Shown here: positions 6,001-27,900 of the stretch, piece by piece | Layout: every line of letters begins with the position of its first letter | Numbering within the stretch: position 1 is the stretch's first letter | Source: an uncultured Gammaproteobacteria bacterium | GTDB lineage: Bacteria > Patescibacteriota > Microgenomatia > UBA10105 > UBA927 | Length of the DNA: 64,000 nucleotides | Direction of reading: 5' to 3' | Assembly: GCA_964356315.1 (NCBI GenBank) | Contig: CAYHHA010000003.1 | Span: forward strand, 12,010-76,009 | The notes under the pieces: model-generated | The model's input: only the letters and a program-made list of their open reading frames with translations | Told to the model about the DNA's origin: nothing | Databases searched by the model: none | Made by a program: the position numbers and the translations under genes

Positions 6001-9000
6001 TTCTTTAGGCTCCAACGCGATACTTTTCAAAATAAAATTTCCCACAGGATCATAAAGAGGAAATATACGGTTTATCCAAAACCTCTCAGCCTGTATCATG
6101 AATTTTTGAGAAAACGAAAGCCCGGTCAAATTGACGGAAAATATATCCTGTGACGCTTTGACAGGAGCATTGTGAAGATATGAGAGGACATATCGGATAT
6201 TTCCGCTATATGTCACCGCTACAGCTTCCCGATACAGTAACTCCAAATCCCGCGCCCACTGCTCATCTTCGTCAGAAAAGCCGAAATACCCAAAGAAAGA
6301 CGAATTTCCACCTACACTTCTATACTTTAATAGTATTTCAATTTCTTCTATTGTAAACAATTTAGAATTTTCCGCTGCTAACTTCAATTCGGCCTTTGAA
6401 TACTGTTTATTTAAAAAAATTGCATCATGGACTATCCATAAATCATTTTTTATCGGAGAAAAATTACGAAGAACTTTTTTTTGAATAATGGTAAAATTAT
6501 CATTGAAATTAACTGCATTCCGGGGAAACCCACTTATCAGACCATATCGTTTTTCTCCTTTGCTAAGATCATTAAAATTATTATTGATTGCATCTCTCAC
6601 AGTCTTTTCATCAACAATCCCTTTAAATTCAGTAAATACATCCCTATTATTGTTAATGACTCGAGTAACCGATCGAACATTTATAAGTGAACCATACATT
6701 GCATCCGATGTGTCAGAGATAAACAAATAATTTTTATCTTTTTCCATTATATTTTTTATAACCCTGGCTTCTTCGTTGGTAAAATATGCACCATTTTCCT
6801 GATAAATATCTTCAGGCTCTAGCTCTGGAATCACACCTGAATATAATGAGCGAATGCGAGGATATCTCTGTACTTTCTCAGCTAAGGTCTTTGGTAAAGC
6901 AACTAACATCTTATGATACGATTCTAATCCTAGAAGTGCTTCATCCCTCGTTACAAATAACGATTTCGAGAATTCTCGCGGCTGTGTATTTCCCACCACA
7001 TTCCTTCCATCTACTTTGAGTGTCGTGCGACTAAAAAACTGCATCATACCCCTAAATGGCATCATCCATGATCGAGCAACATCACTACTCGGATCTACTC
7101 CTCTAGCCTTGTGATATGCTGTAATAAATCGCTTTACCCATGTCAAAAATCTAGTACACGGATTCCCGTTCACCGCATAGACAGTCGAGAATATACCGAT
7201 ACCAGGTGTTGGAATACACGATTTCGCTTCATCCTCTACCCCTTCAACCGCGATTGCCGCTTTTGCAGCAACTGTCCTTGCTACTGTTTCGAGTGGACCA
7301 ATAGACGCGCTATCATCATGAGCTGCTTGTGACACTGCGTCAGGACTATTTGAGTTTGAGGCCACATCCTGAAGCGCGTCTTCTGCTTCTTGCGTGAGTG
7401 GTAGTTCATGCTCTACCCCACGACTTTCAAGTGTATCAAGAAAAGCATCAGCTATAGTTTTTTGTTTTTCAATTTGAGCTTCTGCCATCGAGATAGCCTC
7501 TCTAATGCTGTCAATTTTCCTTTTTACGGGTGAGGTGTGCAGAAATTCCAACACTTTTTCATCTCCGAGCTGCTTTTGCAAGGCTTTGCCAAGCATAATT
7601 CCTATCGAATAATACTTATCATCTGTACTAATAATTGATTGCCTCTGTAACTGATGTTCAATATCCAGTAACCGTACTTTTGCTGCCAATTCGTTTTCAC
7701 TATTTTGATCCATTCCATCAGCCAGCGTATTCAAAAATCTCGATGCTGCCAACTCACCACCCATCTCGTCGACTATGCTTTCAATATATTTTTCCTCATC
7801 GTTTAAATTCGGATGTACCAAAAACTGCTCTTGATAGGAATACGTAACAGCATGATCAATTTCATGGGCAATAAACGCTAGAGCGCTTACTAATCCTTGA
7901 TTATCAAATTCATCGCTAATAAACAACATGTGTCTAGGCTCTCCATTTATGGTGGTTTGGATTGCCACACCAAATGTCTGCGAAGCTTTTAGAAAAGACG
8001 ATTGCGCGTCCATATTTGTTACCATAATAGGAATTCGCATGGTCACGTTACCCGTTTGAATTACTATATGAGAGACATTCAGACCTTTGAGAAATTCTCT
8101 TTGCAGTGTAGAGTATTGATCCATCTTCTCGATAAGCTCTGCGGTAGGCAATGCCAAAAGCTCATCTCTCAAGCGCTTATCGCTAATAGCATTTTTTACA
8201 ACTTCCTCTGCAACTTTTCTTCGTATTTCATCATCAATAGACGCTGATTCTATGTGAATGTTAGCAATTTTTCCATAGACAGACCGTAAATATTCTTCAA
8301 AACTTGCTGGATTATGCTGAATATCGAAAAATGGTTTTTTTTCAGAATCAAGCAGTTGATTTAATAGAATTTGTTGCTGGGACGAAGCCATTTTTTGACC
8401 TTGCATTCTATTTTTGATAGCGTTATCGTACGTTTTTAAAATGTATATTAGAGATTGTGTATGCTTTGCAATATACGCAGAAAACTGTAATGAAAATTGA
8501 GGAATATTAAAAACTAAGTAGTTTTTGGCTCGATATTTCGTAGCGCCTGATTCTCGAGTGCTTTTATCGGATAACCCAGCTTTAACTGACTCTTCTAGAT
8601 AGGACGTAACCAATTCTTGTGCTATCAGCATACTGTCACCTGCGACTTTTGTAATAGTTTCCTTTTCGATAACGGCTGATTTTTGTTGTGGTACGTTTTC
8701 TTGCACTGGATTTTTCTTTATTAATATCCCATTTTGTTCAACCCAACCATATGCAGAAAATAGCTCAGCATACTCACCTTCGACATCCGCGGATATAATT
8801 CTCGCGCCATTTTTTGCTATTCTGGACACAGCGTTAATAAACTGAAGAGCTTTTTCTTCCCCTTCTTTCAATCCATGCATCATGCCCCCGTTATTGGATA
8901 AAAACGTATCGACACTATTATCCGGAATCCCGTCCAAGGTAAACCAATCTTCTTTAACGAGTTGTAATCCTCGCTTCGTAATGTCAACTTTTTTCCTGGT

Positions 9001-18000: not shown

Positions 18001-21000
18001 GAATATACCCATACCTGTTTTTGGAGTGCATGTTTTCGCTTTCTCCTCTACTCCTGCAACTGCTATTGAAATTTCTTCTGAGAGAGGCTTTGCTGCCGCT
18101 TCAAGAGGACCAACTACTTGGTCCTCTGAGGCTTGTTGTAATTCATTTGAAGTTTGGTCCATCGTGGTTGGTTTGCTTGATGAGGAGTCCTTCCCAGAGG
18201 GGGAATTTAAATCAGGTTTGGGTTGCGTACTTTTTGTTTGTCTCAGTAGTCTCGCTACACTATCAAGAATTACTTTTATTGGACGTCTGCCTCCTTGGGT
18301 TCTGATTATTGCCGCAGCGGATTTACTCTGTCCTTCAATCATTGATGCAAATTTATCCATAACCCCAAATGCGATTCGTTCGTCCACTGACCGAACTATG
18401 TTCAATGTTCCAACTTTCGTAACCATGTGTATGATTCGATTAATCCATACTGTTTGTTTCCGAATATCGGATAATTCCTGTGCTGTAAGTTGTGGAACAT
18501 ATGCTTCTAATTTTGAGATAGCAAATATAGTCTTCCCTACTACATCAGGTGGAGCTGTTGTTACGCGCTGAACTGATTCCACAAGTAATTTTGCATTTCT
18601 TCCAAATTCTCCTTGAACAAGCGGAATATCTTTCGGTGCATCTGTCCAGCCTAATTCAGACAGTGCACGAAACACCATTTCCTGACTTCCAACTATCAAC
18701 CCGCTTAATAGATTACGAATCGCTGGCATTTGAGACTTCTCTACTCGTTCATTTAGTCCAGCGTCAAGAATAGAAACGATCAGATCTTCACCTTGTGTTT
18801 CTACAAATATATTTCCTGGTTGCAAATCAGCATGTACATTGCCCGTATCAAGAATTTCTGAGAGAAATTCTTTCACGATAGCGGAATTAACCAATCGTAT
18901 TACTTGAAGCATTGACTGTTTTTGCTCCCCCTCAGACATGTGAGAGAACTCTTCTAAAATGCTGTCAAATCCCCGACCTAGAGCTATTTCTTCTAAAATT
19001 ACCACATTCGAAGCAAATAATATTTGTGGTACGTGAAGCGCTACGTGTGGGATTGAACCTCGAGCACTAATATCTGCCGATAGTGCCTCTCGAAATGCTC
19101 TTTCATTTTCAAACACTAATTCTTCTTCAATTGCAGATCGAATCTGACGAGCAAATCCTGCAGGCAATTGAGATGCAACATTTCGTTGAGATAAAAACCC
19201 AACAACCTCACCCAAAAGGTTTATATCATGATCGAGCGCTCCCGACTTTTGAGCTGACGGTCGTTTAAACTTCCCTATCACGTCTTTAGTCTGAGTAATA
19301 CCAAAACTATCTTCATATTCAATGGTAAGAATGATTGCTTGTTTATTTGACGCTGCCCCTACTAACGGTCCAAATTTCACAATCCGTACCGGACTATGTG
19401 GATCTAACAATCCAGAACTTTGCGCTAAAATCATAATAGCCCGCTTCGTTAACCGATCGGCTTGACTTTGAGCAGATCTCAACTCTACACGATACTCTTC
19501 AGGGACCCAAAGGGCTTCAGACAAACTTTGTGCAACTTTTTTACCAGCGACACCTAGTTGAGAAAGAAAAATGGATAGCGCCTTTGGCGTCGTCATATCT
19601 TTTCCTTCAGACTTCAACGCAATTGATGATTCGATAAGTTTTTCCACAATCTGCGTTGATCGCGCAGGATCAGCTTTTTCCAGCAAAAAGACGAAGAGAT
19701 CGCGAAAAAGCCCAGAATTCTCACCCTCTTTTATGAATGCTTTTGAAAGCTCTGTAAGAAACGCTTTTCGCTCTGTTTGCGCTTTTTCCAGGACGCCTTT
19801 ATCTCCTGATTGCTCGGCAACACGCAGATCCAAGATGCCCTCAGCGCCTAAGAGCAACCGATTTAGGAATATTGTTCGTTCATCTGGCGTAATTCCAGCA
19901 AACACTTCTATAAGTCTATTTGCAGATCCATCTGAAACTGACTCTATGAATTTCACTTTCCCAGGTTTTTCAGTCGTTAATTGCATGAGCCACAAGGCCA
20001 AGTCAGATCGTTCCTTTCTCAATCCCGCTGCAAGTTGCGTCATAACAAACACACTGGGGTTTGCCTTCATATTCCCATCAGAATCCTGAGCTTGACCTTC
20101 TTCAGTCACACGCATTGAAACGAGACGCTCCAACTGCTCAGGCGTCACTGAAGTGTTATTTTCGATTTGCTCAAAATAATAATTTCTTGCAACTGATGGC
20201 TCTGATAAATACGTCACTACCGCTCGTACCGCTGAGTCAAAATCCTGATAGAAATTTGGCGTTGTTTCAATCAAGAGACGCAACGCAATAATTCCATATG
20301 TTTGTTTAATAGATGAGTTTGGCGACAATATACTGAGAAGTTCAGAAATTCGAGTTAGAGCAACCTTTTTGTCTATTTTTTGATAATCGATTGCCTCTTC
20401 AATAAGAAATTCTACATATGCATCTCGTACAGGAGAAGCAACCGGTGAAAGAGATGTTAGGAGTTTTACCCGATCAGTAAAATTCGTTTGTGGATCAAAT
20501 AGTTCTTTTTCATGGAAAAACAATTGTTCTGCCAAGTATCTTTTAACAAATGGATCACGTTCATCATACCCATGGAAATATTCATCTTTAACACTATCGG
20601 CAAATGTTCTATACCGCATAAACGACATCCGTCGACGAACAAGATCACCCTGAATTTCAGCCATCTTTCCTTTTGCCTTTAGATCACTAGCTAGAGCAAC
20701 CATGTCACCACCGGTTACATCTGGACCATTTAATAATGATAAAAATCGCGCTGAAGCAGGAATGACTATTTGCCCTAATAGTGGTGATGTCGGAATTTCG
20801 TTATATATCACCAAAAGCTTATCACGCATTGAAGATGAGGTGAAATGTTGTTCGATCCAGTCTAGATAGGCAGTTTCATTTGGAAATTCACGAACTGATT
20901 TTCGAACGATATTCCAAAACTCGACAACCCGCGTATTTTCTGGCGTACGGGATCCGGGCGGAACTAGTGAAAGAAGTGTACATACTTCTCCGAGAGATAG

Positions 21001-24000
21001 ATCCCCATACATTGCTTGGTATCTTTCATCATAAAATGGGTGAGAATTTACTGAGGAAAATAATCTTCCCAATTCTTTTAATGTATCTGCTGATGCATAG
21101 TTCACTATGTCTATAAATACTGGCTTCTGTATCTTGACAGTAAATGTATCACTCCAAAAGTCTGGAACAATTCCATTTGATGTGAGAGTGTGAATTACTC
21201 TGATGATCTGCTGCTCTTCCTCCTTAGTAAATGCGTTAATTGTCTTTTCTTGCTCCTTTCTCTTCACGATATCAGGAATTGCTTGTAAAAAAAGGTGATT
21301 AAATATTTCATCTTTACGGACTCTTGCATTAATCTCTTCCCCTCTTTCTCTTTCTTTATACAGTCGAGCAAAAAATTTCAGTAATCGTTCAGTCTCACCA
21401 TCCGTTGAACTTTTTGATTTCTTAGCTAGATCAATAAATTGGCGTATCCGACCCTTTCCTTCCCATGGAGAATGATCATAAAGATAGATAAGATCGTCAG
21501 AGGATAACGATATAGAAAACTTACCCATGGATCGAATAATAGTAAGAATCTCGGAAGACGCAGATCCGTTTGCTCGCATCTGAGAGATATATGTGTTTAG
21601 GATATCTTCTCGTGAAGTCAAAAGAGCTTTAAATTTATCAACACCTGGGATATGTATGTACGGAGTCGGTGAATTTGTAAAAATATCAGTCGCTAATCCC
21701 CATTCTGATTCGGATAGGTTCAATAGTTTTGGATTTTCAAACACCGGGGAGATGTCACCTTCAGACACACCTCTTGAAATCAATTCCCACCCAAACATAG
21801 ACCTAAGTGCTTCTTCGTATTCGTGCACATAGTAATATCTATCAGATTGTTTCACGACAGGGACACCGTCAACCCGCTTCATCCTCTGTGAAGTTGACGG
21901 ATTTATTTTATCTAGAAGCGGATGGGTCATATATCCACGTGCTTGAGGAATTTCGAGTGCTTCCCTCGTTAAATCTCCATTTACAATAGTTCTCAGAGAT
22001 TCCATATATGATTTACCTTGTTCATGAGGGGAATTTCGCATAGGCAGTATTGGTGCTACTACGGATAATTTTTTATAGAGTGATGGGATTCTTTCCCTAG
22101 GATAGGCACGCAAAAATGCAAACCACTTTACCTCCCCTTCAGGGGATTGCATTATCCATCCTGCAAACGCTCGAGCCTCCTCAAGAGAAACGCCAGCTTC
22201 ATTCTGAATGAGGACGCTAAGAACCTGTTGAGCATCGGTATTCTCTGGAATTTGCTCAAGCAACCCAAACACTAGATTTGTAGCCGACGTACTCTTTAGC
22301 TCATGTATCGATTGTGGTTCTGAAATATCTTTTGTAATCGTACGTTCTGCAGGTAATCGCACCCCATTGTTGATTGCTATTTTTCGAGCTTGGTCATTTA
22401 AATACGAATTAACATGTTGTGAATTCTCTGGAAATGCTGTTTCAAGAATTGCTAAAGGTGGATCAACTTCATAATTGCCCACTTGTGTGTAATCTAGAAC
22501 AGACTGAAAAAATGATTGATTTTTTGTAGAGAAATTTGTGTTTGCTTTATTCTTTGAGATTAATTCGCTAATCGCCACGTCCAGTATTCTATTTAGTTCA
22601 GCTATATGTGCAGATATTTGCTGGACTTCGGCATCATTCACTCGCCCACTTGGTAATTGAGAACGATATACCGAGTCAACCATCAAACTACGTGTAATTA
22701 CATCATAGTAATTCATAGTCTTTGAATCATAAATTATACTGAGTATCTGACTTCGCATATGCTCTTTTATATTTGTAAATTTTGGAAAATCCACGATTGA
22801 ATCATCCAGAACCTGCAATCCAGATCGTAAACTTTGAAGAGCTATTAGTCTTCGAATCGTTGGTTGTAATTCATCATTAATTTTTTCTGCTATGCCCTTT
22901 GAAGCCTCGACTCTCTGTGCATGACGTTCAGCTTGGTAGTACAGCCAAAAATCAGTTATTGTTTCTGCCTTTCGCATTTTTTCCAATGCTTCACTAGATG
23001 ATAAGGTCGCCATATCATCGATGACATACACTTTCGACTCGGCATCAAACAATGCTAACAACCGTGGTGATAATTTCTGGGAGGTGTAAGTAGCAATCGG
23101 ATGCAGATCATCCGTTGCGGTCAATTCTAGATGCGAAATGCGATCTATAATTTCTCCATGACTCGAGCCCCTGTCAGTTGTTAATCCCATCGCCGTGTAT
23201 GCATCAATCATCGCCTGATAGTTATATTTACCGATGTTTGCCAAGAGCATCATTCCTTCTCGGTCTGCACGGAATTCTTCACTCGTGATGCTCGTCTTTT
23301 TGTTTGCAACATTAGCTAACCAATCTCCTGATTCACCCAACCGATCTTTCGTATCTTTGTGCATAATTTCGTGTGCAAATATAGCTGCGACATGGTCTTC
23401 TGTAAGCACCCTACCTTTTTTAGCGAGTTCACTTTTAATTTGCCTAATTAATCCTGTAGTCATAACAATTATTTTTTCTGTTTCATTTGCAATATGAAAC
23501 GCGTTTTGAGTGTCTGAATCCAACGCAATGATCTGATAATCGGAAGGCAGCTGAAGTCGCTTTGCTATCGCATGAAGTAGCTGAGTGAACTCATGGTCAT
23601 CGGGCAACGGTTCTCCCATATTCCATAACACTTGTTTCAAATCATCAGCTATTTGGAATCTATCGAGCCCACTAGCTTGAGTCAAACTAGATACATTTGA
23701 ATTAACGCTGAGAGCGTTTGGAGCAGTCTTTATATTTTTCAGAACAAGGCTTGACTCATTCTCGCTCTGAGGAATAGTACCGCTGTACATCGAACTCTCC
23801 AACTCTATGGCTTTTATAACTTCTTGAAGCAAAGATGCGGGAGGTGTTCGTGCTAAAATCGATGCCACATCATCATACTCTTTAACAATTGAGAACACCT
23901 CATCTCCACTGAGTGCATCAATGCGTTTTACGGATAGAATATCTTGTAAATACGGTAGTATTGCATCGAATAGTTGAATTGCCTGCGCTTGTAGTTTTGG

Positions 24001-24600
24001 ATCTGTTATCTCTCCTACTATTAGCGCTCTCCCCTGCTCACCCAAAAGTATAGATGCCTGTGTTATACGCACGGGCGCTTCTGATTGAAAATTTGATTGA
24101 GTCTGACTATCTCTCGTTACTCTTTGCATCAGAAATAATGAATTCCCTCTCAAAAACGTTGAAACGGAGCTCCATGGCCTTTCGGCGATAGCATTGGTAA
24201 TCCTATTCACGGTAAGCTCTCGATCCAATATTAGTTGTTGTGCACGTAATCTATCCTCATCCGTCATCTCAACACATTGATCTGTCGCGGCATACACCTT
24301 TGGAATAAATCGGTACGTTCGGATCACAGCAAATGGAGAGCCACAGCTTCCTGATTGCTGCAGCGCAAAGGCAAAGGAAAACAAAAATCCTGCGAGAAGT
24401 CCGAGAGAGCCGGGAACCATATGATTGCGAGTGAGCTTCGTAGTTTCGTAGCTTAGTAGCTTAGTAGAACGAGACATGGGACATGAGACATGGGAAGCGT
24501 AGCTTCGTAGCTTAGTAGAACGAGACATGGGACATGAGGCATGAGACAGGAAACAAGAAAAGCGGGAAACGTAGCTTCGTAGCTTAGTAGAACGAGACAT
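1..24600 (-). CDS. Giant multidomain protein A (≥8,160 aa, 3' end/C-terminus beyond window start); N-terminal repeat + signal-peptide-like segment; M48-like metalloprotease, ABC1/UbiB kinase-like, 3× SAM-MTase-like domains. Candidate start codons at 24600, 24528, 24477 (24420 less likely)
   Basis: Minus-strand frame hand-translated over 24,600→17,800, ~12,000–12,750 and 4,900→1 with no stop; the intervening stretches were not translated end-to-end. Only short out-of-frame ORFs appear on the track across 1–24.4 kb (no in-window stop, so the tool cannot report it). An in-frame stop (TGA) lies just upstream of ATG 24600. The protein reads MSRSTKLLSYETTKLTRNHMVPGSLGLLAGFLFSFAFALQ...; motifs are listed as separate features. 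Confidence 0.85.
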   Translation of the reverse strand, partial: MSRSTKLRSYVSRFSCFLSHASCPMSRSTKLRSYASHVSCPMSRSTKLLSYETTKLTRNHMVPGSLGLLAGFLFSFAFALQQSGSCGSPFAVIRTYRFIPKVYAATDQCVEMTDEDRLRAQQLILDRELTVNRITNAIAERPWSSVSTFLRGNSLFLMQRVTRDSQTQSNFQSEAPVRITQASILLGEQGRALIVGEITDPKLQAQAIQLFDAILPYLQDILSVKRIDALSGDEVFSIVKEYDDVASILARTPPASLLQEVIKAIELESSMYSGTIPQSENESSLVLKNIKTAPNALSVNSNVSSLTQASGLDRFQIADDLKQVLWNMGEPLPDDHEFTQLLHAIAKRLQLPSDYQIIALDSDTQNAFHIANETEKIIVMTTGLIRQIKSELAKKGRVLTEDHVAAIFAHEIMHKDTKDRLGESGDWLANVANKKTSITSEEFRADREGMMLLANIGKYNYQAMIDAYTAMGLTTDRGSSHGEIIDRISHLELTATDDLHPIATYTSQKLSPRLLALFDAESKVYVIDDMATLSSSEALEKMRKAETITDFWLYYQAERHAQRVEASKGIAEKINDELQPTIRRLIALQSLRSGLQVLDDSIVDFPKFTNIKEHMRSQILSIIYDSKTMNYYDVITRSLMVDSVYRSQLPSGRVNDAEVQQISAHIAELNRILDVAISELISKNKANTNFSTKNQSFFQSVLDYTQVGNYEVDPPLAILETAFPENSQHVNSYLNDQARKIAINNGVRLPAERTITKDISEPQSIHELKSTSATNLVFGLLEQIPENTDAQQVLSVLIQNEAGVSLEEARAFAGWIMQSPEGEVKWFAFLRAYPRERIPSLYKKLSVVAPILPMRNSPHEQGKSYMESLRTIVNGDLTREALEIPQARGYMTHPLLDKINPSTSQRMKRVDGVPVVKQSDRYYYVHEYEEALRSMFGWELISRGVSEGDISPVFENPKLLNLSESEWGLATDIFTNSPTPYIHIPGVDKFKALLTSREDILNTYISQMRANGSASSEILTIIRSMGKFSISLSSDDLIYLYDHSPWEGKGRIRQFIDLAKKSKSSTDGETERLLKFFARLYKERERGEEINARVRKDEIFNHLFLQAIPDIVKRKEQEKTINAFTKEEEQQIIRVIHTLTSNGIVPDFWSDTFTVKIQKPVFIDIVNYASADTLKELGRLFSSVNSHPFYDERYQAMYGDLSLGEVCTLLSLVPPGSRTPENTRVVEFWNIVRKSVREFPNETAYLDWIEQHFTSSSMRDKLLVIYNEIPTSPLLGQIVIPASARFLSLLNGPDVTGGDMVALASDLKAKGKMAEIQGDLVRRRMSFMRYRTFADSVKDEYFHGYDERDPFVKRYLAEQLFFHEKELFDPQTNFTDRVKLLTSLSPVASPVRDAYVEFLIEEAIDYQKIDKKVALTRISELLSILSPNSSIKQTYGIIALRLLIETTPNFYQDFDSAVRAVVTYLSEPSVARNYYFEQIENNTSVTPEQLERLVSMRVTEEGQAQDSDGNMKANPSVFVMTQLAAGLRKERSDLALWLMQLTTEKPGKVKFIESVSDGSANRLIEVFAGITPDERTIFLNRLLLGAEGILDLRVAEQSGDKGVLEKAQTERKAFLTELSKAFIKEGENSGLFRDLFVFLLEKADPARSTQIVEKLIESSIALKSEGKDMTTPKALSIFLSQLGVAGKKVAQSLSEALWVPEEYRVELRSAQSQADRLTKRAIMILAQSSGLLDPHSPVRIVKFGPLVGAASNKQAIILTIEYEDSFGITQTKDVIGKFKRPSAQKSGALDHDINLLGEVVGFLSQRNVASQLPAGFARQIRSAIEEELVFENERAFREALSADISARGSIPHVALHVPQILFASNVVILEEIALGRGFDSILEEFSHMSEGEQKQSMLQVIRLVNSAIVKEFLSEILDTGNVHADLQPGNIFVETQGEDLIVSILDAGLNERVEKSQMPAIRNLLSGLIVGSQEMVFRALSELGWTDAPKDIPLVQGEFGRNAKLLVESVQRVTTAPPDVVGKTIFAISKLEAYVPQLTAQELSDIRKQTVWINRIIHMVTKVGTLNIVRSVDERIAFGVMDKFASMIEGQSKSAAAIIRTQGGRRPIKVILDSVARLLRQTKSTQPKPDLNSPSGKDSSSSKPTTMDQTSNELQQASEDQVVGPLEAAAKPLSEEISIAVAGVEEKAKTCTPKTGMGIFPTVYALDGNPCSAFWTLVNRIVTAYHNARGVDPSSDVARSWRMPIREAQEWVVISQQAKKLKIGKNIWQQNIEIPYAYRATNEYISSLPFEQRDALTALSDELSVPLIHPAWSLVLGDEDGKKYITELIRNPTENGKNYLQKILTIQGLFPKKMDVDLRQAFSNFFYKNQSYFIDSVYYQKYISPEKLQELIVYMQKNPRFIRLLSTETIALASYIGYMFDYRKDIPIGTFLDAYMDVHTRLTQSGVPLAFVHRLISDSDRYIKNDSGLYERLLYVQHLVPEIALLNRDIRRVKIKNNVLDPLRGSSLYSNRMDWTARVLPILYTQTDRIQKKTIEYIHEHFAELAPTFQQFHIKSIGSVRVWYSEQLLAAILLSDRPEDAIHKAQSIRPEMFETVMFSLSQAGFTNWEVFGNAEINMLLRALNSEDPNHELELFAMQVKKFSDKRLVLGLKYYFETIVSPDSYQKFMELSDEEIHALELYAKGTLQSNKIFVDTLGSMSRQGQAENLIAGYIQATDKSEYLDGLSLFEHSDPEQFSIALRYSPQSEDPVGMLTSLFALRNHISLNVLIEDTGEKKLKLKLSDIPELARISVELDKKFEQYKILPEVRKKILETLVYFDDPIPSGDALLQGFDLVSEFLIHTTNVLSIPKTLSTLLANKEIAQNATSYRVELMRDRLLAYPNIPREQVVATLNTFTDEQTRLFYTVLGQMKTDPPNGSVLKFDTNTEEFIGLMRSIFPNEPQSYLDKIFLAIDTPPSFIRAFLHRDRAVKLMRYAEELYKLESLTDSIWILIRDLIARDDIEIQLAEKILYTEFKKGDLNESAWLADDLYRLVTGAGMLNGIPVKNVDRIRLDLILVGEKLGLVSGGEEMKAKKRAYLLSYAKSDGLDFLGHEAEFIQDEIFATPRTPENEFLRYYRDYRSLRSFFGGKEGLVYFQERTAQKNSRTDPYIGMVASIIKHETNAGNISVVWGFKHELNDPEKLAIVLNELPDEYRSFWETYATEPYLQAPLSQNGLEFYAKNKMSELTGDQKIAVFIKSEVESRNIDQVFRWFSGILAEAERKKRIFLELPLDTVILLRVHSELPSLRELFATKTPDEIVKIFQKEGKIEQFLAIEAMVDESGSLELQKLKTEIMESLLDLEQPLEAFRNIRTIFTQNNTPLIVKLFYVFNSLFPEAKFTPKADIGSPTLLSRTNDAHRRVLIWRDLLSAAVGSGNYELETYLVKLDAGLNVIEKYRSGKHLIEKERKLLKMTMVRLSTVAFVSKKERKPKNIFLNLGMIEDMTDKELQESVNTLYANLQIHPNQTLRERVNELFLIGPKNIGTNMGASLGEVVSKIRSSRIEADARNRAYAKQFGSKLFEAKKGDLIKGQLLVGQLSPSNFYGLLQRGPSMREALGGGYTEKDLTPFGLDLLRFEGDADISGVQLAMNALKGYGHLYVFVHPDGRLNDTGKATTSDPRPEMYITDVVKQDNMKHVDIRGALPSNLISAILLDPEIYTSGDTQKMIYSVIARNGYYIPIFDKDGKLIFTEDQYDTIRESYKGLPEFSGESLAVNTAIKSVSLQQDITTVVAQRDTKKEAQRMSVVRSNVLSIVGDILAKYKIPISGNEVGKVDLKDAVLEDIGSTGRGTNVSGDADFDYTLTLNQALVGKYGSQIAQDLRVAFSALGGQEIHDPLATGTSIQTRFTNVQFSGIEGVIDIDIGINSYIDLINLPSHAAVRRRLDSITEKKRNFVVANILVAKRILKEAKVYKKGTGAGGQAGLGGIGVENWILSNNGNLEIAMKTFWDAAHDPNGGVLTIDEFKGKYGIYDPGINLRGNSFDNYVMNLTESSYVKVLETIEPYVRGSEDTEGLNASINRVVSQFTDPNPVLGIWKKSEYSILPSDLGGGNEAMLVERTDKSKWYVKFQSPDAIASEVLMDSIYKRLGIPVVESTIVQVETENGVKIGRASRWVEESDPRIAEDYKNGFVLDAWLMNFDMKYEKNRKGAIRIDNGSSVLFKSLGERRQERFQTAQVTELISMLDGYPGLDTEAIVNQIDILVDTMTDQVLINLTEQSALRVVDKKKIAEVLIRRREYLRSYAAGLRAPEAENSITQDLPKKCSDCKLLVREIDGKMDEADVIQDEYLRESAYDQIFHTIMEHINDRGLNGKEKKNLALLYHKRAGAHSKLIVADGVITFKEGYENAKYWLMTLEATALLNWQPPTPERVSRYFNQFIKVLTEINSLNTSYEQALFSKPRTYIAQFSGYLKSFFVRFIQPIRSALPSTTKNRPAQTQVQIAAEPELPSSQNDVFASPTKSEITGPLAEFIPEGYPLLLLSGTSQKNAESVEELGFAEGTLTTSFSDTQSDRFALRPEGGALLVALRTPGVFETGEVPGGAGYPGQYFKVKPKTGSQREIQFRAESTDPLLGDDVKMITDKYVDPKNMGSMQLTSEQTTFIDFVDSILRGSYIRKFDRQKIQKLAQKWEKTGISLQVFKTVPIGAPQSVGMSDEDYLELYDAKQQEKTATLLNIPVADLESWDSFQKTVGEKFPTEDAFLEAVVEEFPGKISWQWKNIQLDDLSIIRAILLNLYQLQIIYSLESLYNKVEPAPFLIFPKGRSIAGYDAYVQRSKQGQSSSVDKQPSLDSTAVKDDDKSIGLPETSAQPVPADYRAFAQAHAQNVLNTEQITQVLDIIQAVLPSLQSGVVSEEDIVAFVVNPDVENPKALLIRKLFETGPPSLQKLLELEESSKYSRYFETKPLLQKTLQFIQENSRSTDAKAEFATAKNLEEAIVKDSDYIARIQSIPKYAHSGYIKGLIEDSLDIFIARKGVTFLTEKEKETIQNNLSSQYHRAMFRSFFQFLKQLGADAKDTSNQLTYLDMNTASRSERTLCRIELFWMKYIFPIYDPAGRYIAQKKPLKHMPSVGAKYHVTIGWFKNITFTLNSRGWDTDRDRGNYTDLLFADAKMLRKRTPGSTENMPTEQEVFADDQVVLDLGSGEALADVAFSRVYPKAKIIGIDFGYDTRKKVDITKRGLQLVKEDWFTLDGIPDNSVDTFLSNNGGMMHGLKEGEEKALQFINAVSRIAKNGARIISADVEGEYAELFSAYGWVEQNGILIKKNPVQENVPQQKSAVIEKETITKVAGDSMLIAQELVTSYLEESVKAGLSDKSTRESGATKYRAKNYLVFNIPQFSLQFSAYIAKHTQSLIYILKTYDNAIKNRMQGQKMASSQQQILLNQLLDSEKKPFFDIQHNPASFEEYLRSVYGKIANIHIESASIDDEIRRKVAEEVVKNAISDKRLRDELLALPTAELIEKMDQYSTLQREFLKGLNVSHIVIQTGNVTMRIPIMVTNMDAQSSFLKASQTFGVAIQTTINGEPRHMLFISDEFDNQGLVSALAFIAHEIDHAVTYSYQEQFLVHPNLNDEEKYIESIVDEMGGELAASRFLNTLADGMDQNSENELAAKVRLLDIEHQLQRQSIISTDDKYYSIGIMLGKALQKQLGDEKVLEFLHTSPVKRKIDSIREAISMAEAQIEKQKTIADAFLDTLESRGVEHELPLTQEAEDALQDVASNSNSPDAVSQAAHDDSASIGPLETVARTVAAKAAIAVEGVEDEAKSCIPTPGIGIFSTVYAVNGNPCTRFLTWVKRFITAYHKARGVDPSSDVARSWMMPFRGMMQFFSRTTLKVDGRNVVGNTQPREFSKSLFVTRDEALLGLESYHKMLVALPKTLAEKVQRYPRIRSLYSGVIPELEPEDIYQENGAYFTNEEARVIKNIMEKDKNYLFISDTSDAMYGSLINVRSVTRVINNNRDVFTEFKGIVDEKTVRDAINNNFNDLSKGEKRYGLISGFPRNAVNFNDNFTIIQKKVLRNFSPIKNDLWIVHDAIFLNKQYSKAELKLAAENSKLFTIEEIEILLKYRSVGGNSSFFGYFGFSDEDEQWARDLELLYREAVAVTYSGNIRYVLSYLHNAPVKASQDIFSVNLTGLSFSQKFMIQAERFWINRIFPLYDPVGNFILKSIALEPKENGSVKIPMGIFKRVTYTEAGRGLWSVVRNMTEYASLFRSRNLSAITSDADPAFASPTEQDVFKKGNVTLNLGSGLAVADLEFSRKYPDATIIGIDNGYEKQLPIDIHKPGLQLSKEDWNVLGGIPDNSVDTFLSYQGAMLHGTEIANEDPIKMISAVTRKAKMGAIILLDQLTSSQDFDPMYLDIFEEFGWDVYQDKTTERYIFQKTKSLSKYAHFLASFDYEKINSELLQISDERMRTRGFYNDLHLVMFQQYRKLFDLKDAGDVQINVIRKIIADILGEHDYRIIPAEIYKQEMGVMENIFMNMSSYLKNSANVDGTTQHQLNAMISQVVISQSELLAQGDVEVVMNIIKADQRYKDLTAGRGSPENDAIDAYIRKALEAKEKSPAPSDPLTKIPLLRGQNSISDELHRLYRPMTIEATQKETVRKINTRELTAIGSGGQRQVFDIGNNEVLKINIVTTTNQIQMLNEIAVMIADPYMKQFLKGWGMTEAGGYYIILSKAVSIVTISDYKTDQIIGLSDYQKILASISSANGVMEKERLMQKYFLTEGDLEQLPGLFALAKRYELFDFSTTQIGRSPDGRLMIIDLGVANFPEKESVIQEVIRVASKNSTEPIAPKDGSKPNSQQSVIQETGGGRCSDCSYIKLVTEKTLKEVDRLLERGKDSYKGQAVKKLEQLISYVLTDHAFDEDIIQSGLGMQIMERLGEAMQSPAGYEAALQFADSARKLTEAIFRSHEWELPEPSVLNDDEDQFLSFDSPNSFISPPYLNDTEALYGEFYLNLLTYIDTLTTDKGSVKPVTPSDTAYVQKILKKGAGYWLRTRFPWLRAEEKLIADLESKKITIDTTPKTKREAQVRAFGQLMRYLRSLIWPEKYTTFTYNGALFFIDPKTGNLALANAPGAIPGRILLGSDMQTGIWDARYILEDDIFEIGEGHRVTYSISRAPGGDELVLSKRSFKKAVTPDEQPSQDVWIPEDIELPGFDRAKFVGYTEMETTLPVAPLPYTSIWQYVWDIIDPQPIFTQYGNTTNRNASDYLSHLFNSSEEIQSIPFYASTGEQYLAREKPSAIFGGVDGFFTPGTRVLDDGAGEAVAIRQLEQQYRDRNISWVAADLNYSFDRQMTNRSGVQLVRDDWDSLAHIPNQSIDRIMSVQAIGKWGEWKTVQAIDRVARPGAILRFDYSKRDGSKIDFINELVRLGWDVYEEQSVITARKSTGKTPKTTDLVPIEVQTEKKKGCEIPFKAFVSRVFAQSASTGCVILSAGQTYTIKNETITIPVSGTYTLNGEKNEYVFDKDTQIKFDNDRTMMIVGTDITIVGSDIIPLSSLNKSVFDMMVVQDNSSAVLIGTNAKIHHEGNDWFVVIPSGAQNVLLNGTTVDSEKIQIHPNDVFEYNNQLFTFEEFGRNTVYLKRPVMAVGGLAYTHIASDLRDKVSYRSNGNAVFPETLMISRMNKLKIDELVPYWLTYDNMVNLSKLLNQYHDDSKIEVARKILEKDGIYGHAPSRGDKEEVMNGLRHTLEFGFRHNPGESLMYGEFGKAPIGESAGRFFEGYAVLMVLPKGVKMKDIIVKDEINGVDIIPPDALMFLVGSDYEAQAFVAWLLNDYYFRNGMNEANVNAFDWVSQHVISVDRVIELEKEGKSLRDISPVTEYLQQKKPVQEMNPGFVQKDSGCEAALNPFVSRVFAAGENCVFMAPGGEYFDGVTTVAIPTYGWYTTSGGSWGVITPSSKSIGVTKGETVTFRTIGRSETLDTATALLPRAYLSNFDAIAQRVASAQPALIQSGEFEKIVDMIPSDLEYKSLFSDRGPPEIATIKAYLLARIASIATSQATPATPPETQPLTRIQRLFNSLAMVFRRSNQGPSRAVTDVTTATYPDAPDDVHARQPAVSTELTADIRKILEDDLKKKGIINLPPAVHEELLRRLSNQMLNGILRKDLQSFDPADYEDIEIYGENGKALSLSQKKAMFMSIEQTYKKALPIYGVAWHVFQRKNPLYKALYFFDMEYLS
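2440..2800 (-). other. Class I SAM-dependent methyltransferase-like domain (copy 3) in giant A
   Basis: GTRVLDDGAGEAVAIRQLEQQYRDRNISWVAADLNYSFDRQ…QLVRDDWDSLAHIPNQSIDRIMSVQAIGKW. Confidence 0.45.
5640..5870 (-). other. Class I SAM-dependent methyltransferase-like domain (copy 2) in giant A
   Basis: GNVTLNLGSGLAVADLEFSRKYPDATIIGIDNGYEKQ…DWNVLGGIPDNSVDTFLSYQ. It is paralogous to copy 1. This is also the source of the look-alike + strand artefact ORFs at 5720 and 8882. Confidence 0.55.
7070..7330 (-). repeat. Intragenic dispersed repeat X, copy 2 (~80–85% nt identity to 17,882–18,140); encodes GPLE…GIGIF.TVYA.NGNPC…TAYH.ARGVDPSSDVARSW module
   Basis: Direct comparison gives 'gatcgagcaacatcactactcggatctac[t/c]cctctagc…' at 7,070 versus 17,882. 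The proteins also align. Confidence 0.7.
8890..9125 (-). other. Class I SAM-dependent methyltransferase-like domain (copy 1) in giant A
   Basis: ADDQVVLDLGSGEALADVAFSRVYPKAKIIGIDFGYD…DWFTLDGIPDNSVDTFLSNN. Motif I is VLDxGxG, motif II is IIGID, and post-II is D.SVD. Confidence 0.55.
12020..12480 (-). other. Possible atypical (lipid/protein) kinase-like segment in giant A
   Basis: …GGGNEAMLVERTDKSKWYVKFQ…DSIYKRLGIPVVE…NGFVLDAWLMNFDMKYEKNRKGAIRIDNGSSVLF. This fits a Lys – catalytic D..N – (I)D.G arrangement reminiscent of PI3/4K- or CotH-like atypical kinases. Motif-level only. Confidence 0.25.
17882..18140 (-). repeat. Intragenic dispersed repeat X, copy 1
   Basis: See copy 2. The two copies are ~10.8 kb apart within giant A. 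Confidence 0.7.
18650..19600 (-). other. ABC1/UbiB-family atypical kinase-like domain in giant A
   Basis: LGVAGKKVAQSLSEALWVPEEYRVELRSAQSQAD (ABC1 N-lobe LGP.fIKlGQ..StR.DllP.ey..eL..LQD); IVKFGPLVGAASNKQ (P.AaASiaQVH); VHADLQPGNIFV…ILDAGL (HaDpHPGNilv…IDfG). HADLQPGN lies at ~18,820–18,843. Confidence 0.6.
23128..23580 (-). other. Peptidase M48 (HtpX/Ste24)-like zinc metalloprotease module in giant A
   Basis: Translation …DSDTQNAFHIANETEKIIVMTTGLIRQIKSELAKKGRVLTEDHVAAIFAHEIMHKD…SEEFRADREGMMLLAN. It matches the M48 pattern NAFA…V.V.TGLL…E.EAV.AHEI.H … EF.AD. The HEIMH codons sit at ~23,359–23,373. Confidence 0.6.
24343..24420 (-). other. Signal-peptide-like / N-terminal hydrophobic segment of giant protein A (…KLTRNH-MVPGSLGLLAGFLFSFAFALQQSGS)
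   Basis: A positively charged n-region (K, R) is followed by a ~18-residue hydrophobic core and an A-x-A-like site (AFA|LQ). There is no lipobox. Confidence 0.5.
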
Positions 24601-24612
24601 GGGACAAGAAAC
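24434..24612 (-). repeat. Tandem repeat (units of 51 and 72 bp, core gtagcttcgtagcttagtagaacgagacatgggaca ×3) overlapping the 5' end of giant gene A; each unit carries an in-frame ATG (MSRSTKL[R/L]SY)
   Basis: Exact cores lie at 24,499–24,534 and 24,571–24,606, with a variant at 24,440–24,478. ATGs at 24477, 24528 and 24600 are all in frame, so the unit lengths are multiples of 3. Confidence 0.8.
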
Positions 24613-24699
24613 ATGAGACAAGAGAGTAGAAATGAGATGAAAGAATAGATGAAATAATTTCACGGTAATTACGGCGTAAAATAGCCTCAATTATCAGTA

Positions 24700-24735
24700 T
24701 GCAGAACCCCGTGAAATAGTGCAAGGGGTTATTAT
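24700..24735 (+). terminator. GC stem hairpin aaccccgtgaaatagtgcaaggggtt followed by ttattatatata (terminator-like on + strand; function unclear because no + strand gene lies upstream)
   Basis: Inverted repeat aacccc/ggggtt with a 14-nt loop and an A/T-rich tail. Confidence 0.2.
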
Positions 24736-24930
24736 ATATAAGTTGGTTAAGAAGCTTGGTAGCTTAGCAAATGGAAGTAGCTTAGACGGACAAAAAAAGC
24801 ATTTAGATTAGGATGAGAGTGAGCTTCGTGGCTTTGAATTTGGGGTAAGTAGCATGTAGTATGGAGAAAGGAGTACGACAATTCTCCCCTTATCCCTTAC
24901 TACATATACCGTACTACATTGCGGGATGTT

Positions 24931-25020
24931 GGATTTAGGATTTATGATTTAGGATTTTAGAGAGGCACAGGATACTAAATACTCGATACAAAATACAAGA
25001 TATTGGATTTAGGATTTAAG
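24931..25020. repeat. Dispersed direct repeat copy 1: (GGATTTA)n array + 66-bp core gatttaggattttagagaggcacaggatactaaatactcgatacaaaatacaagatattggattta + GGATTTA units
   Basis: It is identical to copy 2 (25,511–25,593) apart from one core mismatch and one extra heptamer unit. Confidence 0.8.
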
Positions 25021-25025
25021 AGTTC

Positions 25026-25050
25026 GAATTATGAATTATGAATTATGAAT
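25026..25050. repeat. Heptanucleotide tandem repeat (GAATTAT)3+GAAT
   Basis: Direct reading gives gaattatgaattatgaattatgaat. Confidence 0.8.
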
Positions 25051-25092
25051 AGTTGGGATACGGGAACCATAACGACAAAAACTATTCCATTT

Positions 25093-25110
25093 TGTCTACT
25101 ATAGTAGACA
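25093..25110. promoter_or_regulatory. 18-bp perfect palindrome tgtctacta|tagtagaca (candidate operator); third TGTCTA half-site at 25,127
   Basis: A perfect inverted repeat, with one additional half-site 17 bp downstream. Confidence 0.45.
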
Positions 25111-25424
25111 TTTTAGTGTTGTTTTTGTCTATACCACGTTGTATGAGGCATGTTATTTTTTCAGAAACACCAGTTTGTGACTGCAACGATGGGTATATAC
25201 CAAATCGAAGCAGTATATCAAGATGATCTTTAGGAGATGTTAGTGTATCAATGGGTATCTCCGAAAGTGCTAATGGGTAGAGAAAAAACTGTCGGATACG
25301 ACAAGTAAGTAGCTCCGGATCTTTTAAAGATACTCTATTACATTAATCTATAGTTCTATCAAATATCATGATTACGTTACACTATACGTATAGGTAATTG
25401 TCAATTTCTAACTAGAAAGACACG

Positions 25425-25480
25425 GCCAAAGCTAAGCTTTTTCGGCAGAATTGATCCACAAAGCTTAGCTTTTTCCGTTA
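25425..25480. promoter_or_regulatory. Pair of 13-bp quasi-palindromes aaagctAagcttt / aaagctTagcttt (mutual reverse complements) 33 bp apart, each followed by ttc(g/c)g
   Basis: Direct reading; a candidate paired regulator-binding site. Confidence 0.4.
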
Positions 25481-25510
25481 TGAATTTCAGAGCTATTTAC
25501 GCTACGCTTT

Positions 25511-25593
25511 GGATTTAAGATTTAGGATTTTAGAGAGGCACAGGATACTAAATACTCGATACATAATACAAGATATTGGATTTAAGATTTAAG
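25511..25593. repeat. Dispersed direct repeat copy 2 (580 bp from copy 1)
   Basis: See copy 1. Confidence 0.8.
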
Positions 25594-25644
25594 ATTTTGG
25601 AATACAGAATACTGTATACAAAATACTAGAATGGGGCGAGCGAG

Positions 25645-26283
25645 TCACCGTATGCTTTCTGACTGAAGAAACTGCTTGACAGTTTCATCCGGCACCTCAT
25701 GCCCTGGCATATACGTGACTTCCTCCGTATAATCAATATCGTCAAAATATCCCAGCTGTTCACGAAATAATTTCTCATTAAATTCGCCACCAAAAATCTT
25801 TCGACTTTGGCGTATAACATCCGCAAAAGGTATTGTTCGAAAGATTTGGTACAAATCGACGTAATCTTTCCATTTTGCACGTCTCGATAGAGCGTACGCC
25901 TTCATTGCGGATAGCGATAACAGGCTTGGCATGCCGATAATTCCGTCAAAATCGTCAGGACATTCGAGTGAAAATGGATACTGAAGAAATGTCCATTTCA
26001 CCCCTCCAAACGCAAGCGTCAGCTCCTGTTCCTCTGAAACGAGAATACTGTCGATGCCACCATGTTTCCTCAGGGTATCCTGGATGGCATCCCGTTGTAG
26101 AGATTCCTGTGTCATGCAGTCAAAATCCACGGAACGCCGGTGACCCAAATGAAGCGCAATTGCCGTTCCCCCGATAAGGCTGAAGGAATGACGAAACTGC
26201 GCAAGGACCGGAAGAAGTTTATATTGCTCTGGCGCTAAAATATCAGGATGCATAGGCTGTATAATATCTGGAAAAATACGCAA
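25645..26283 (-). CDS. AbiEii/AbiGii-like nucleotidyltransferase (DUF1814-type type IV TA toxin family) – 212 aa; alternative start at M11 (26253)
   Basis: LIGGTAIALHLGHRRSVDFDCMT matches the AbiEii GGTaL…R.SeDiDf nucleotidyltransferase signature. It overlaps the upstream small ORF by 41 nt. Confidence 0.55.
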   Translation of the reverse strand: MRIFPDIIQPMHPDILAPEQYKLLPVLAQFRHSFSLIGGTAIALHLGHRRSVDFDCMTQESLQRDAIQDTLRKHGGIDSILVSEEQELTLAFGGVKWTFLQYPFSLECPDDFDGIIGMPSLLSLSAMKAYALSRRAKWKDYVDLYQIFRTIPFADVIRQSRKIFGGEFNEKLFREQLGYFDDIDYTEEVTYMPGHEVPDETVKQFLQSESIR

Positions 26284-26521
26284 TCGTTTTTTTTCGGAGG
26301 TTTACGCGGTTACTCGAACACATCTCTTCAAATAATTGTTTTGTTTTTTGGATACCGAGCGTGCGCTCCGTCAACACATAATCATCCCAATCCCCATAAT
26401 TGAGGATATGTTCAAGGATGCTCTTTTCTGATAGCCGGGATGTGTCTGCCAAATACCAGGTCAAATATGGCTTTTTTTGAAGCATTTCACTCAATGTTTC
26501 CATACATGCAGTATACCTCAT
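26243..26521 (-). CDS. Small hypothetical protein (92 aa) translationally coupled to the AbiEii-like gene; putative cognate antitoxin/partner
   Basis: The ORF sits directly upstream of, and overlapping, the nucleotidyltransferase gene. GAGG lies 13 nt before the internal ATG (METLSEM…). No recognisable domain. Confidence 0.4.
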   Translation of the reverse strand: MRYTACMETLSEMLQKKPYLTWYLADTSRLSEKSILEHILNYGDWDDYVLTERTLGIQKTKQLFEEMCSSNRVNLRKKTIAYFSRYYTAYAS

Positions 26522-26673: not shown

Positions 26674-27900
26674 TCATACTGGGCGGGTAACAAAGTCCAA
26701 CACATTCTCACGATGGATTATCGCATAGGTAGAATCGGGATAATTTGTACTCCACGCGACCGGCGCCTTTTGTTTTTTCACCGTCCACTTTAATTCAAAC
26801 GCCTGCAACTTTCCTCCAGCATCTTCTACATAATCCACCTCTGCGCCATCCCACGTGCGCCAAAAATATGAGTTCACAGAATTTCCTGAATTATTCATAC
26901 ATTTGATCCGCTCTGATATGCAGAAATTTTCCCACAACGCTCCTGTGTCGGTCCGAAGTGACAGCGGGTTCACGTTATTGATAATGGCGTTGCGTACACC
27001 CACATCATAAAAGTATACTTTTCTCAGCTTCGAAAGTTCTTTCCGATGATTTCGCGCCAGGGGCCGTAGGGTAAATATAATAAACGCCTGTTCTAAAATC
27101 CGGATATAATTCATAACTGTTTTCTGATCAATGCCTAGCAAATTGCTCAGCTCAGTGCCTGATACTTCGTTCCCGATCTGTAACGCCAACGCCTGTACGA
27201 GTTTTTCTAAAATATCCGGATTTTTAATCCGCTGATATCCCAATACGTCTTTATACAGATAACTTTTGGTCAATACGTTCATCGACTCCCCCGCCTCACT
27301 TGGTTTGAGAATAGCGCTTGGATACATACCATATTGGAGATATCGCTCAATAAGTCTCATGGTCTCCAGTCGGTCCGATACTGAAAGAATCTCATCAAGA
27401 GAAAATGGATATAAATAAAATTCATAAATTCGGCCGGTTAATGGTTCTGAAATTTTATTTGACAGATCAAATGAGGAGGAGCCGGTCGCTATAATCTGCA
27501 TCCCCGGTGATGTATCAATGAGTAATTTCAGCGTGAGCCCAATATCAAGCACACGCTGCGCCTCATCGAAAACTACGAGCTTTTTATCTCCGATATAGGC
27601 ACGAAGTTCGGTTGATGTTTTATGTGTGAGCGCCTGGCGAACATCCGGCTCGTCGCAATTTAAATATACCGAATCGGTTTTATAGTGATTTAATATCTCG
27701 GTGACAAGAGTAGTTTTCCCAACCTGACGGGCTCCGTAGATTATAATTGCCTTCCCTTGGAACAATTTCGCTTCTACTCTCGGTTGAATACTCCGTTTAA
27801 TCTGCATAGTTAAGTGATTCAATTCCTTTAACTTATACCTATTTAGAGGATTTGTCAACAAAATCGGAAAGTCCCCTTTATATATCTCTTCTTTCCACAT
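26674..27900 (-). CDS. AAA+ ATPase of the AAA_14/DUF4143 family (ATP-binding protein); 408 aa from first ATG, 377 aa if it starts at MQIKRS… (27807)
   Basis: Walker A IIIYGARQVGKTTLV and Walker B LVVFDEAQ, with the overall architecture typical of DUF4143 ATPases. AGAGGAGAGGA lies upstream of ATG 27900. Confidence 0.7.
   Translation of the reverse strand: MWKEEIYKGDFPILLTNPLNRYKLKELNHLTMQIKRSIQPRVEAKLFQGKAIIIYGARQVGKTTLVTEILNHYKTDSVYLNCDEPDVRQALTHKTSTELRAYIGDKKLVVFDEAQRVLDIGLTLKLLIDTSPGMQIIATGSSSFDLSNKISEPLTGRIYEFYLYPFSLDEILSVSDRLETMRLIERYLQYGMYPSAILKPSEAGESMNVLTKSYLYKDVLGYQRIKNPDILEKLVQALALQIGNEVSGTELSNLLGIDQKTVMNYIRILEQAFIIFTLRPLARNHRKELSKLRKVYFYDVGVRNAIINNVNPLSLRTDTGALWENFCISERIKCMNNSGNSVNSYFWRTWDGAEVDYVEDAGGKLQAFELKWTVKKQKAPVAWSTNYPDSTYAIIHRENVLDFVTRPV

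Follow-up and report, generated by a model that had tools for sequence, protein, structure and literature searches.

A composite 7- and 8-nt repeat at the 5' edge of a giant gene, probably a leader and, at most in its last copy, part of the protein

The question raised by this locus is where the giant gene A of contig CAYHHA010000003.1 begins, and whether the tandem repeat just ahead of it belongs to its protein. The stretch of DNA analysed (the window) comprises 64 kb, of which gene A occupies positions 1 to 24420 on the minus strand and runs off the window end (8,140 codons in the window from ATG 24420; 11,849 amino acids on the source contig). A first-pass annotation had placed the start of gene A inside a coding repeat, with 51- and 72-bp units that each carry an ATG in the frame of the gene (24600, 24528, and 24477) and with a closing TGA upstream, and had read it as three alternative N-termini (MSRSTKL[R/L]SY, three times). 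These units, ATGs, and TGA are indeed all present on the minus strand. Their best explanation is a composite leader satellite made by slippage, with translation of gene A from ATG 24420 or ATG 24477, a reading that is considered likely. Most likely, the two distal MSRSTKLRSY units lie outside the protein, and at most the last copy is translated. While the gene is unusual, the repeat itself is of a fairly ordinary kind.

The evidence starts with the architecture of the array. Three copies of a 34-nt core, spaced 72 and 51 nt apart, occur at 24603-24570, 24531-24498, and 24480-24447 (all coordinates of the array and of gene A refer to the minus strand and to the numbering of the window). Cores 1 and 2 are identical (cccatgtctcgttctactaagctacgaagctacg), and core 3 has a single G>T mismatch by which LLSY replaces LRSY. 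Tandem Repeats Finder (TRF) reported a period of 51 nt with 95% matches and a score of 180, a direct-repeat search of the window retrieved three copies at 51- and 72-nt spacing, and the 22-mer ATGTCTCGTTCTACTAAGCTAC was found exactly three times in the window, versus zero times in 100 shuffles. Written in register, the array turns out to combine two short-unit repeats, one of 7 nt (YYCATGT) and one of 8 nt (TACKAARC), rather than to form a coding minisatellite of 51/72 nt. Runs of heptamers (cccatgt, ctcatgt, ctcatgc, and the decayed forms ttcttgt, ttcctgt, and cccgctt) alternate with runs of octamers (tactaagc, tacgaagc, and tacgaaac), and the 72-nt unit differs from the 51-nt unit by 21 nt, exactly the length of three heptamers. 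Two additional octamers close the last unit, followed by a 14-nt unique stretch up to ATG 24420, and the decayed heptamers upstream of core 1 retain neither the ATG nor the peptide. Read 5' to 3' on the minus strand, the features are the following.

24740-24836, minus: further copies of the octamer family (AAGCTA/GAGCTTCG), upstream of the closing stop (repeat search, motif count)
24731-24736, minus: perfect TATAAT, a candidate -10 element only, with no acceptable -35 hexamer (motif inspection; absent from the consensus promoter scan)
24691-24696, minus: in-frame TGA (24696-24694) and TAA (24693-24691), closing the frame of gene A upstream (frame translation ...SAY, two stops, LRLF...)
24604-24640, minus: decayed heptamer array (atctcat ttctact ctcttgt ctcatgt ttcttgt) upstream of core 1 (register parse, TRF period-7 rows)
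24570-24603, minus: core copy 1, 34 nt, with in-frame ATG 24600, which would read MSRSTKLRSY (repeat search, register parse, 22-mer count)
24532-24569, minus: spacer 1, 38 nt, made of 3 nt and five heptamers (ttt cccgctt ttcttgt ttcctgt ctcatgc ctcatgt), with off-frame ATGs 24542 and 24535 (register parse)
24498-24531, minus: core copy 2, the same as copy 1, with in-frame ATG 24528 (register parse, 22-mer count)
24481-24497, minus: spacer 2, 17 nt, made of 3 nt and two heptamers (ctt cccatgt ctcatgt), with off-frame ATGs 24491 and 24484 (register parse)
24447-24480, minus: core copy 3, one G>T mismatch, with in-frame ATG 24477 (MSRSTKLLSY), a candidate start with a basic n-region (register parse; codon score ambiguous)
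24453-24614, minus: 53-aa open reading frame (ORF) in another frame, wholly within the repeat and annotated as a gene (ENA gene call)
24421-24446, minus: end of the octamer array (aaac tacgaagc) and the 14-nt unique stretch (tcactcgcaatcat) up to ATG 24420, with no Shine-Dalgarno motif (register parse)
24361-24420, minus: ATG 24420 (the ENA start) and the hydrophobic segment MVPGSLGLLAGFLFSFAFAL (hydropathy; A-x-A site, AFA followed by LQ)

Such an array probably arose by replication slippage, producing short runs of YYCATGT that alternate with short runs of TACKAARC, with one 7/8-nt block duplicated later into the 72- and 51-nt higher-order units. It would be transcribed as a pyrimidine-rich, unstructured 5' leader of gene A without a Shine-Dalgarno sequence, and translation of the giant protein would begin at its 3' edge. 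The in-frame ATGs and the open frame would then be by-products of the CATG-containing heptamers and of a purine-poor strand. The out-of-frame upstream ATGs would give peptides of 7 to 53 amino acids, with stops at 24514-24453, upstream of ATG 24420, and might damp or couple initiation, thereby affecting expression.

An alternative is that the whole array is coding, with ATGs 24600, 24528, and 24477 as alternative N-termini, or with gain and loss of 51- and 72-nt units varying the length of the n-region in frame. Unit lengths that are multiples of three, with an in-frame ATG in each unit, would fit this alternative and had been singled out as striking; both follow from the 7-nt sub-repeats. Indeed, the ATGs form ladders with 7-nt steps (24614/24607/24600, 24542/24535/24528, and 24491/24484/24477, the member at 24607 being TTG), and the ladder members of each unit fall in frames 2, 1, and 0. 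Since ATG-containing heptamers place ATGs 7 nt apart in these three frames, an in-frame ATG in every unit is automatic. Besides the three array ATGs, the frame of gene A contains ATG 24420. The open frame also favours a coding array, as frame 0 is open from the TGA-TAA pair, through the array, down to position 1 of the window, and was so in just 2% (270 nt) to 6% (180 nt) of dinucleotide shuffles, which ignore that the units are mutual copies, so that the real chance of an open frame is higher. The only stop triplets on the array strand are TAA within octamers; the two octamers of the last unit block frames 2 and 1, and frame 0 stays open. A rough count from the phases of these TAA triplets gave an estimate of about 15% for an open frame 0 by chance. 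In addition, MSRSTKL resembles a basic n-region, and all candidate ATGs lie in unstructured RNA, with a similar local accessibility around each of them. Translated in frame 0, the two distal units would yield peptides such as STKLRSYVSR and the unit-1/2-specific FSCFLSHASCPMSR.

The codon statistics point away from a coding array. A codon model was trained on the two giant genes of the window, gene A and the adjacent gene B. Coding windows of 41 codons scored 0.305 ± 0.11 bits per codon and off-frame windows -0.88 ± 0.41 bits per codon. Against this scale, four successive segments scored as follows.

24600-24478, minus: the two distal units, -0.64 bits per codon, lower than any of the 41-codon windows from genes A and B, a score ordinary for off-frame sequence
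24477-24421, minus: the proximal unit, -0.105 bits per codon, at the 1st percentile of coding windows
24420-24364, minus: certain coding segment, 0.10 bits per codon, a low score
24363-24307, minus: certain coding segment, -0.255 bits per codon, lower than the proximal unit

The cumulative log-odds drop by approximately 38 bits from 24640 to 24470 and are flat thereafter. Similarly, the array region consists of 66% pyrimidine and contains 13.7% G, compared with 13.9% in the upstream spacer and 22.7% on the coding strand of gene A, and G occupies the first codon position in 10% of cases in the array region versus 32% in gene A. This places a switch in base composition near 24420-24480. The hypothetical N-terminal extension would be rich in Ser (25%), Cys (5%), and His (5%), unlike the giant proteins, which contain 0.1-0.2% Cys. 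Furthermore, the motif family extends beyond the closing stop: across 24421-25644, TAGCTT (the plus-strand form of the octamer motif) shows a 22-fold enrichment, and its copies at 24760, 24778, and 25466 are located past that stop. With these points against it, as well as an unchanged copy number and the lack of a family match (both treated below), translation of the whole array is considered improbable, and a start at one of the distal ATGs unlikely. The distal units, scoring as typical off-frame sequence, fit poorly as N-termini. What stands of a gene start inside the repeat is a start in the last unit of the array or at its 3' border, with the frame open.

As to the start itself, the preferred reading is a leader that ends at ATG 24420 or ATG 24477. 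The ENA gene call on the 123.7-kb contig starts gene A at ATG 24420 (11,849 amino acids). Read straight from this ATG, the segment runs as LGLLAGFLFSFAFA followed by LQ or, equivalently noted, MVPGSLGLLAGFLFSFAFA followed by LQ, and it includes an A-x-A site. It is the only 19-residue stretch with a mean Kyte-Doolittle value above 1.6 among the 8,140 residues in the window. An h-region, LGLLAGFLFSF, is followed by AFA and LQ, with small residues at positions -3 and -1, as for Sec-type signal peptidase I. The signal-peptide-like segment proposed at the N-terminus is supported, beginning at ATG 24420, and it may serve as a Sec signal or as an anchor. A lipobox ([LVI][ASTVI][GAS]C) was not found at Cys26, which is preceded by Q-S-G-S, with Ser at position -3, and lies five residues past the h-region. 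No purine-rich Shine-Dalgarno motif occurs upstream of any candidate ATG. Since other gene starts in the window, namely a homology-supported ATPase start (ATG 27807) and two called toxin-antitoxin starts, have weak or distant purine motifs or none, this lack is uninformative.

Several observations weigh against an untranslated array with a start at ATG 24420. From this ATG, the n-region is MVPGS, with no Lys or Arg ahead of the hydrophobic segment, an uncommon arrangement among bacterial Sec signal peptides. ATG 24477 adds MSRSTKLLSYETTKLTRNH, giving a normal basic n-region with four Lys/Arg and one Glu, and the three distant relatives with an N-terminal hydrophobic segment (P0032, P0036, and P0037) all carry Lys or Arg ahead of it. 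The weight of ATG 24477 is further raised because paired cysteines, described below, suggest an exported protein. Codon statistics leave room for a coding proximal unit, because the first ~40 certain codons of gene A score poorly too, and young repeats need not yet carry the codon usage of the gene. Finally, a second gene call on identical DNA, on another contig, starts gene A at GTG 24663. On balance, ATG 24420 is tentatively put forward as the translation start, and ATG 24477, in the last unit, is the somewhat less probable but still quite possible second candidate. The two gene calls, together with the 53-aa ORF, which is almost certainly spurious, illustrate that short-unit repeats confuse gene calling, as two starts and a spurious gene were assigned to the same DNA.

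Homology searches reached the protein only downstream of its start. A word-indexed protein search with the first 700 amino acids of gene A returned no matches. An exhaustive HMMER search retrieved 39 relatives, all aligning with query residues ~224-566 (counted from ATG 24477), an M48-like domain, and neither the extension nor the first ~200 protein residues are matched by any of them. No related loci for the N-terminal 500 amino acids were found in the genome, metagenome, and viral contig collections, and the core 22-mer had no match in the genome or JGI metagenome contig collections. Scans of the N-termini against Pfam (from ATGs 24600, 24477, and 24420) and NCBIfam yielded no family at E≤10. 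This bears on the proposed likeness to extended signal peptides (ESPR, PF13018; YSIRK-type, PF04650/TIGR01168). If an upstream ATG were used, a long region would precede the hydrophobic core here as well; such extensions have conserved motifs and are not tandem repeats, whereas at this locus neither of these nor any other Pfam or NCBIfam family matched at that threshold. Specifically, ESPR was not recognised and the YSIRK-G/S motif is absent from the translated sequence. The likeness could hence not be substantiated.

The array belongs to a spacer of 1.2 kb that is rich in repeats. Tandem arrays with a score of at least 50 number only two across the 64 kb, and both lie within this spacer ahead of gene A. 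Near the array, the promoter scan gave nothing except the lone TATAAT at 24736-24731; if it is used, every candidate ATG would be within the transcript. Directly 3' of it lies a hairpin, AACCCC-14 nt-GGGGTT (24730-24705), with no T-run. The spacer also contains a 97-nt direct repeat, 92% identical between its copies (24935-25031 and 25508-25604) and rich in GGATTTA-type heptamers, a GAATTAT array of 3.6 copies at 25026-25050, and, in the 476 bp between the 97-nt copies, no convincing ORF.

The direct repeats might instead bind a regulator. The 34-nt cores could be sites of a transcription factor, or the pyrimidine-rich leader that of an S1-, Csp-, or Csr-type protein. The spacing of the three near-identical cores (72 and 51 bp, roughly seven and five helical turns) and the enrichment of the AAGCTA motif across the entire spacer are compatible with such binding, as is the position of the array, directly ahead of the start codon in the place of a ribosome-binding site, a placement shared with Beggiatoaceae (PMC4679880). 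Neither a candidate regulator nor a sign of a regulon was seen, and the core 22-mer was absent not only from the collections searched but also from elsewhere in the window. Moreover, no RNA element matched Rfam at E≤1, and the predicted leader fold was not more stable than that of shuffles (z = +0.45). A role as regulator-binding sites is therefore regarded as quite doubtful.

Among known systems, the closest analogue of the array appears to be the TAACTGA type of heptamer repeat. In marine Beggiatoaceae and in some Cyanobacteria and Bacteroidetes, direct repeats of TAACTGA precede start codons, end only a few nucleotides short of them, and stand in for a recognisable Shine-Dalgarno site (MacGregor 2015, PMC4679880). 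They come in sets of two to six copies, often interrupted by related heptamers, differ among strains by indels in 7-nt steps, and have been proposed as binding sites of a DNA- or RNA-binding regulator (PMC4679880). Like these sets, the array consists of short, interrupted 7-nt runs, is oriented toward a start codon without recognisable Shine-Dalgarno sequence, and ends near that start, its last recognisable octamer ending 14 nt before ATG 24420. Unlike them, its heptamer (YYCATGT) contains ATG, the heptamer TAACTGA itself is absent, the 7-nt unit is interleaved with an 8-nt unit (TACKAARC) in 51/72-nt higher-order copies, and a frame is open throughout. In addition, TAACTGA sets are many per genome, whereas a single locus is known here, from 64 kb. 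The array would be a further member of the short-unit repeats of leaders, differing from TAACTGA in both motif and composite 7/8-nt organisation. A tandem repeat between promoter and start codon of a gene for a large surface protein is also found in Moraxella catarrhalis uspA2, in which, according to the part of PMC4679880 that cites this work, 6 to 23 perfect copies of AGAT in the 5' untranslated region tune expression through their number. The uspA2 unit has 4 nt and was tested experimentally; the array described here is a composite of 7 and 8 nt.

These comparisons raise the possibility of a contingency locus, in which slippage in 7- or 8-nt steps alters the length or the frame of the leader and so switches or grades a giant exported protein, from either start. 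Neither period is divisible by three, each of the three frames contains ATGs, and directly downstream of the array lies the signal-peptide-like segment of a giant protein that is probably exported. Genes for surface proteins provide precedents, with repeats either in the leader or in the part that encodes the signal peptide (PMC3899988, PMC4679880), such as the CTCTT coding repeats in the signal-peptide region of Neisseria opa (P.II) and the CAAT repeats, with multiple ATGs, of Haemophilus influenzae lic1 (PMC3899988). As in opa and lic1, whose products are surface-exposed, short pyrimidine-rich repeats with unit lengths not divisible by three are located at the 5' end of the gene, and the ATGs of lic1 lie in different frames too. 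The opa and lic1 tracts, in contrast, are long, perfect, demonstrably polymorphic, and inside proven coding sequence, while the array is short and degenerate, showed no polymorphism, and, according to its codon statistics, is mostly untranslated. At most two to three consecutive units are perfect, and the 7- and 8-nt arrays reach TRF scores of 35-47. Known contingency loci have long perfect tracts. Because such tracts are lacking and no polymorphism was seen, the locus was not filed as a contingency locus. Moreover, a frame shift by slippage is impossible if ATG 24420 is the start. Overall, this explanation is unlikely.

The variation in unit number that had been suggested was checked by comparison of assemblies. 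The window is identical to the ENA contig NODE_68 of ERZ4201063 (123.7 kb), and a contig of ERZ4201064, which matches it gaplessly over 5.9 kb, shows no difference in the array and one single-nucleotide polymorphism (SNP) in 17.7 kb. The copy number of the array, therefore the same in both assemblies that span it, counts against in-frame unit gain or loss as well as against 7- or 8-nt slippage. Since one SNP in 17.7 kb means that essentially one clone was sampled twice, the comparison is a weak test and says little about stability. Exact look-ups of the ATPase, the AbiEii protein (see below), and the 53-aa ORF in other samples revealed only these two contigs spanning the array; a third sample contains the same strain, on a contig that stops inside the 97-nt repeat. 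The repeat number could also be a product of the short-read assembler, as in two samples the Logan k-mer contigs stop at window position 25534, inside this nearby dispersed repeat, a sign that repeats of the spacer are difficult for short-read assembly, and coverage, as given in the contig names, is approximately 9.7x and 5.8x. Two independent assemblies with an identical and gapless array make such an artefact very unlikely.

A related reading, in which the array is a translational switch and slippage would decide which ATG, if any, reads into gene A, is rather improbable. The ATG ladders cover the three frames, and the octamer TAA triplets block two of them. The choice of start could alter the topology or fate of the product: one from Met-24477 would have a basic n-region, an N-in orientation, and be exported, and one from Met-24420 would have an uncharged N-terminus, possibly N-out, and be tethered in the cytoplasm. 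In general, the fate predicted for an orphan protein of 11,849 residues (secretion, anchoring, or a cytoplasmic location) depends on its exact N-terminus, and this prediction in turn shapes ideas on the role of giant genes in a probably very small genome. If the array were variable in length, it would provide an example of repeat-mediated control of a giant surface protein outside the classical pathogens.

Gene A and the adjacent gene B (27928-64000), both on the minus strand, encode 11,849 and 14,806 amino acids, respectively, on the source contig. Together they fill approximately 80 kb of its 123.7 kb and contain almost no Pfam domains. Paralogy of A and B was rejected, as BLASTP showed no similarity between them, and internal repeats were not found in A. 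An alternative genetic code was excluded too, since none of the 8,140 gene A codons is an in-frame TGA and the closing TGA is followed by TAA. Domains recognised in A are M48-like (amino acids 278-359), ABC1 kinase-like (1711-1913), and methyltransferase-like (approximately 5106-5217 and, weakly, approximately 7220-7310). Its first ~1,900 residues (amino acids 278-1913, window positions ~18680-23590) resemble a family of proteins of approximately 1,800 amino acids from Candidatus Daviesbacteria and Peregrinibacteria, with an N-terminal M48-like HExxH domain and a C-terminal ABC1/UbiB kinase-like domain. Judged by these alignments, gene A looks like that module with an orphan N-terminal addition of ~200 amino acids, including the hydrophobic segment, and ~10,000 further residues.

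Concerning the location of the giant proteins, 14 of the 16 cysteines in A and 8 of the 10 in B are paired at a distance of at most 25 residues (P≤1e-5 for each), in proteins with very little cysteine (0.2% in A and 0.1% in B). In A, the pairs include 26/49, 2131/2151, 5735/5755, and 7373/7393, besides the CxxC motifs 4239/4242 and 6778/6781. This suggests that the paired cysteines may form disulphide loops and that the giant proteins may be extracytoplasmic. Against export, the relatives of ~1,800 amino acids have hydrophilic N-termini without a signal peptide. The kinase- and methyltransferase-like domains would also be compatible with a protein whose bulk is cytoplasmic and held by an uncharged N-out helix, matching ATG 24420.

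Heptamer repeats had prompted the idea of a cyanobacterial origin, which was rejected, as only one HIP1 site occurs in the 64 kb and most named relatives of the fused domains and of those nearby come from Patescibacteria. Between the giant genes, two further loci are present on the minus strand. The DUF4143/AAA_14 ATPase gene (26674-27900) is probably annotated ~31 codons too long, as the N-termini of its homologues match ATG 27807 (MQIKRSIQPRVEAKLF...); the named homologues, at approximately 60% identity, are mostly from Patescibacteria (candidate phyla radiation, CPR) and give the chief indication that the DNA probably comes from an uncultivated member of that group. At 25645-26503, a gene for an AbiEii-like nucleotidyltransferase toxin (202 amino acids) overlaps by 11 nt with an upstream ORF of 86 amino acids, and the two likely constitute a type IV toxin-antitoxin pair.

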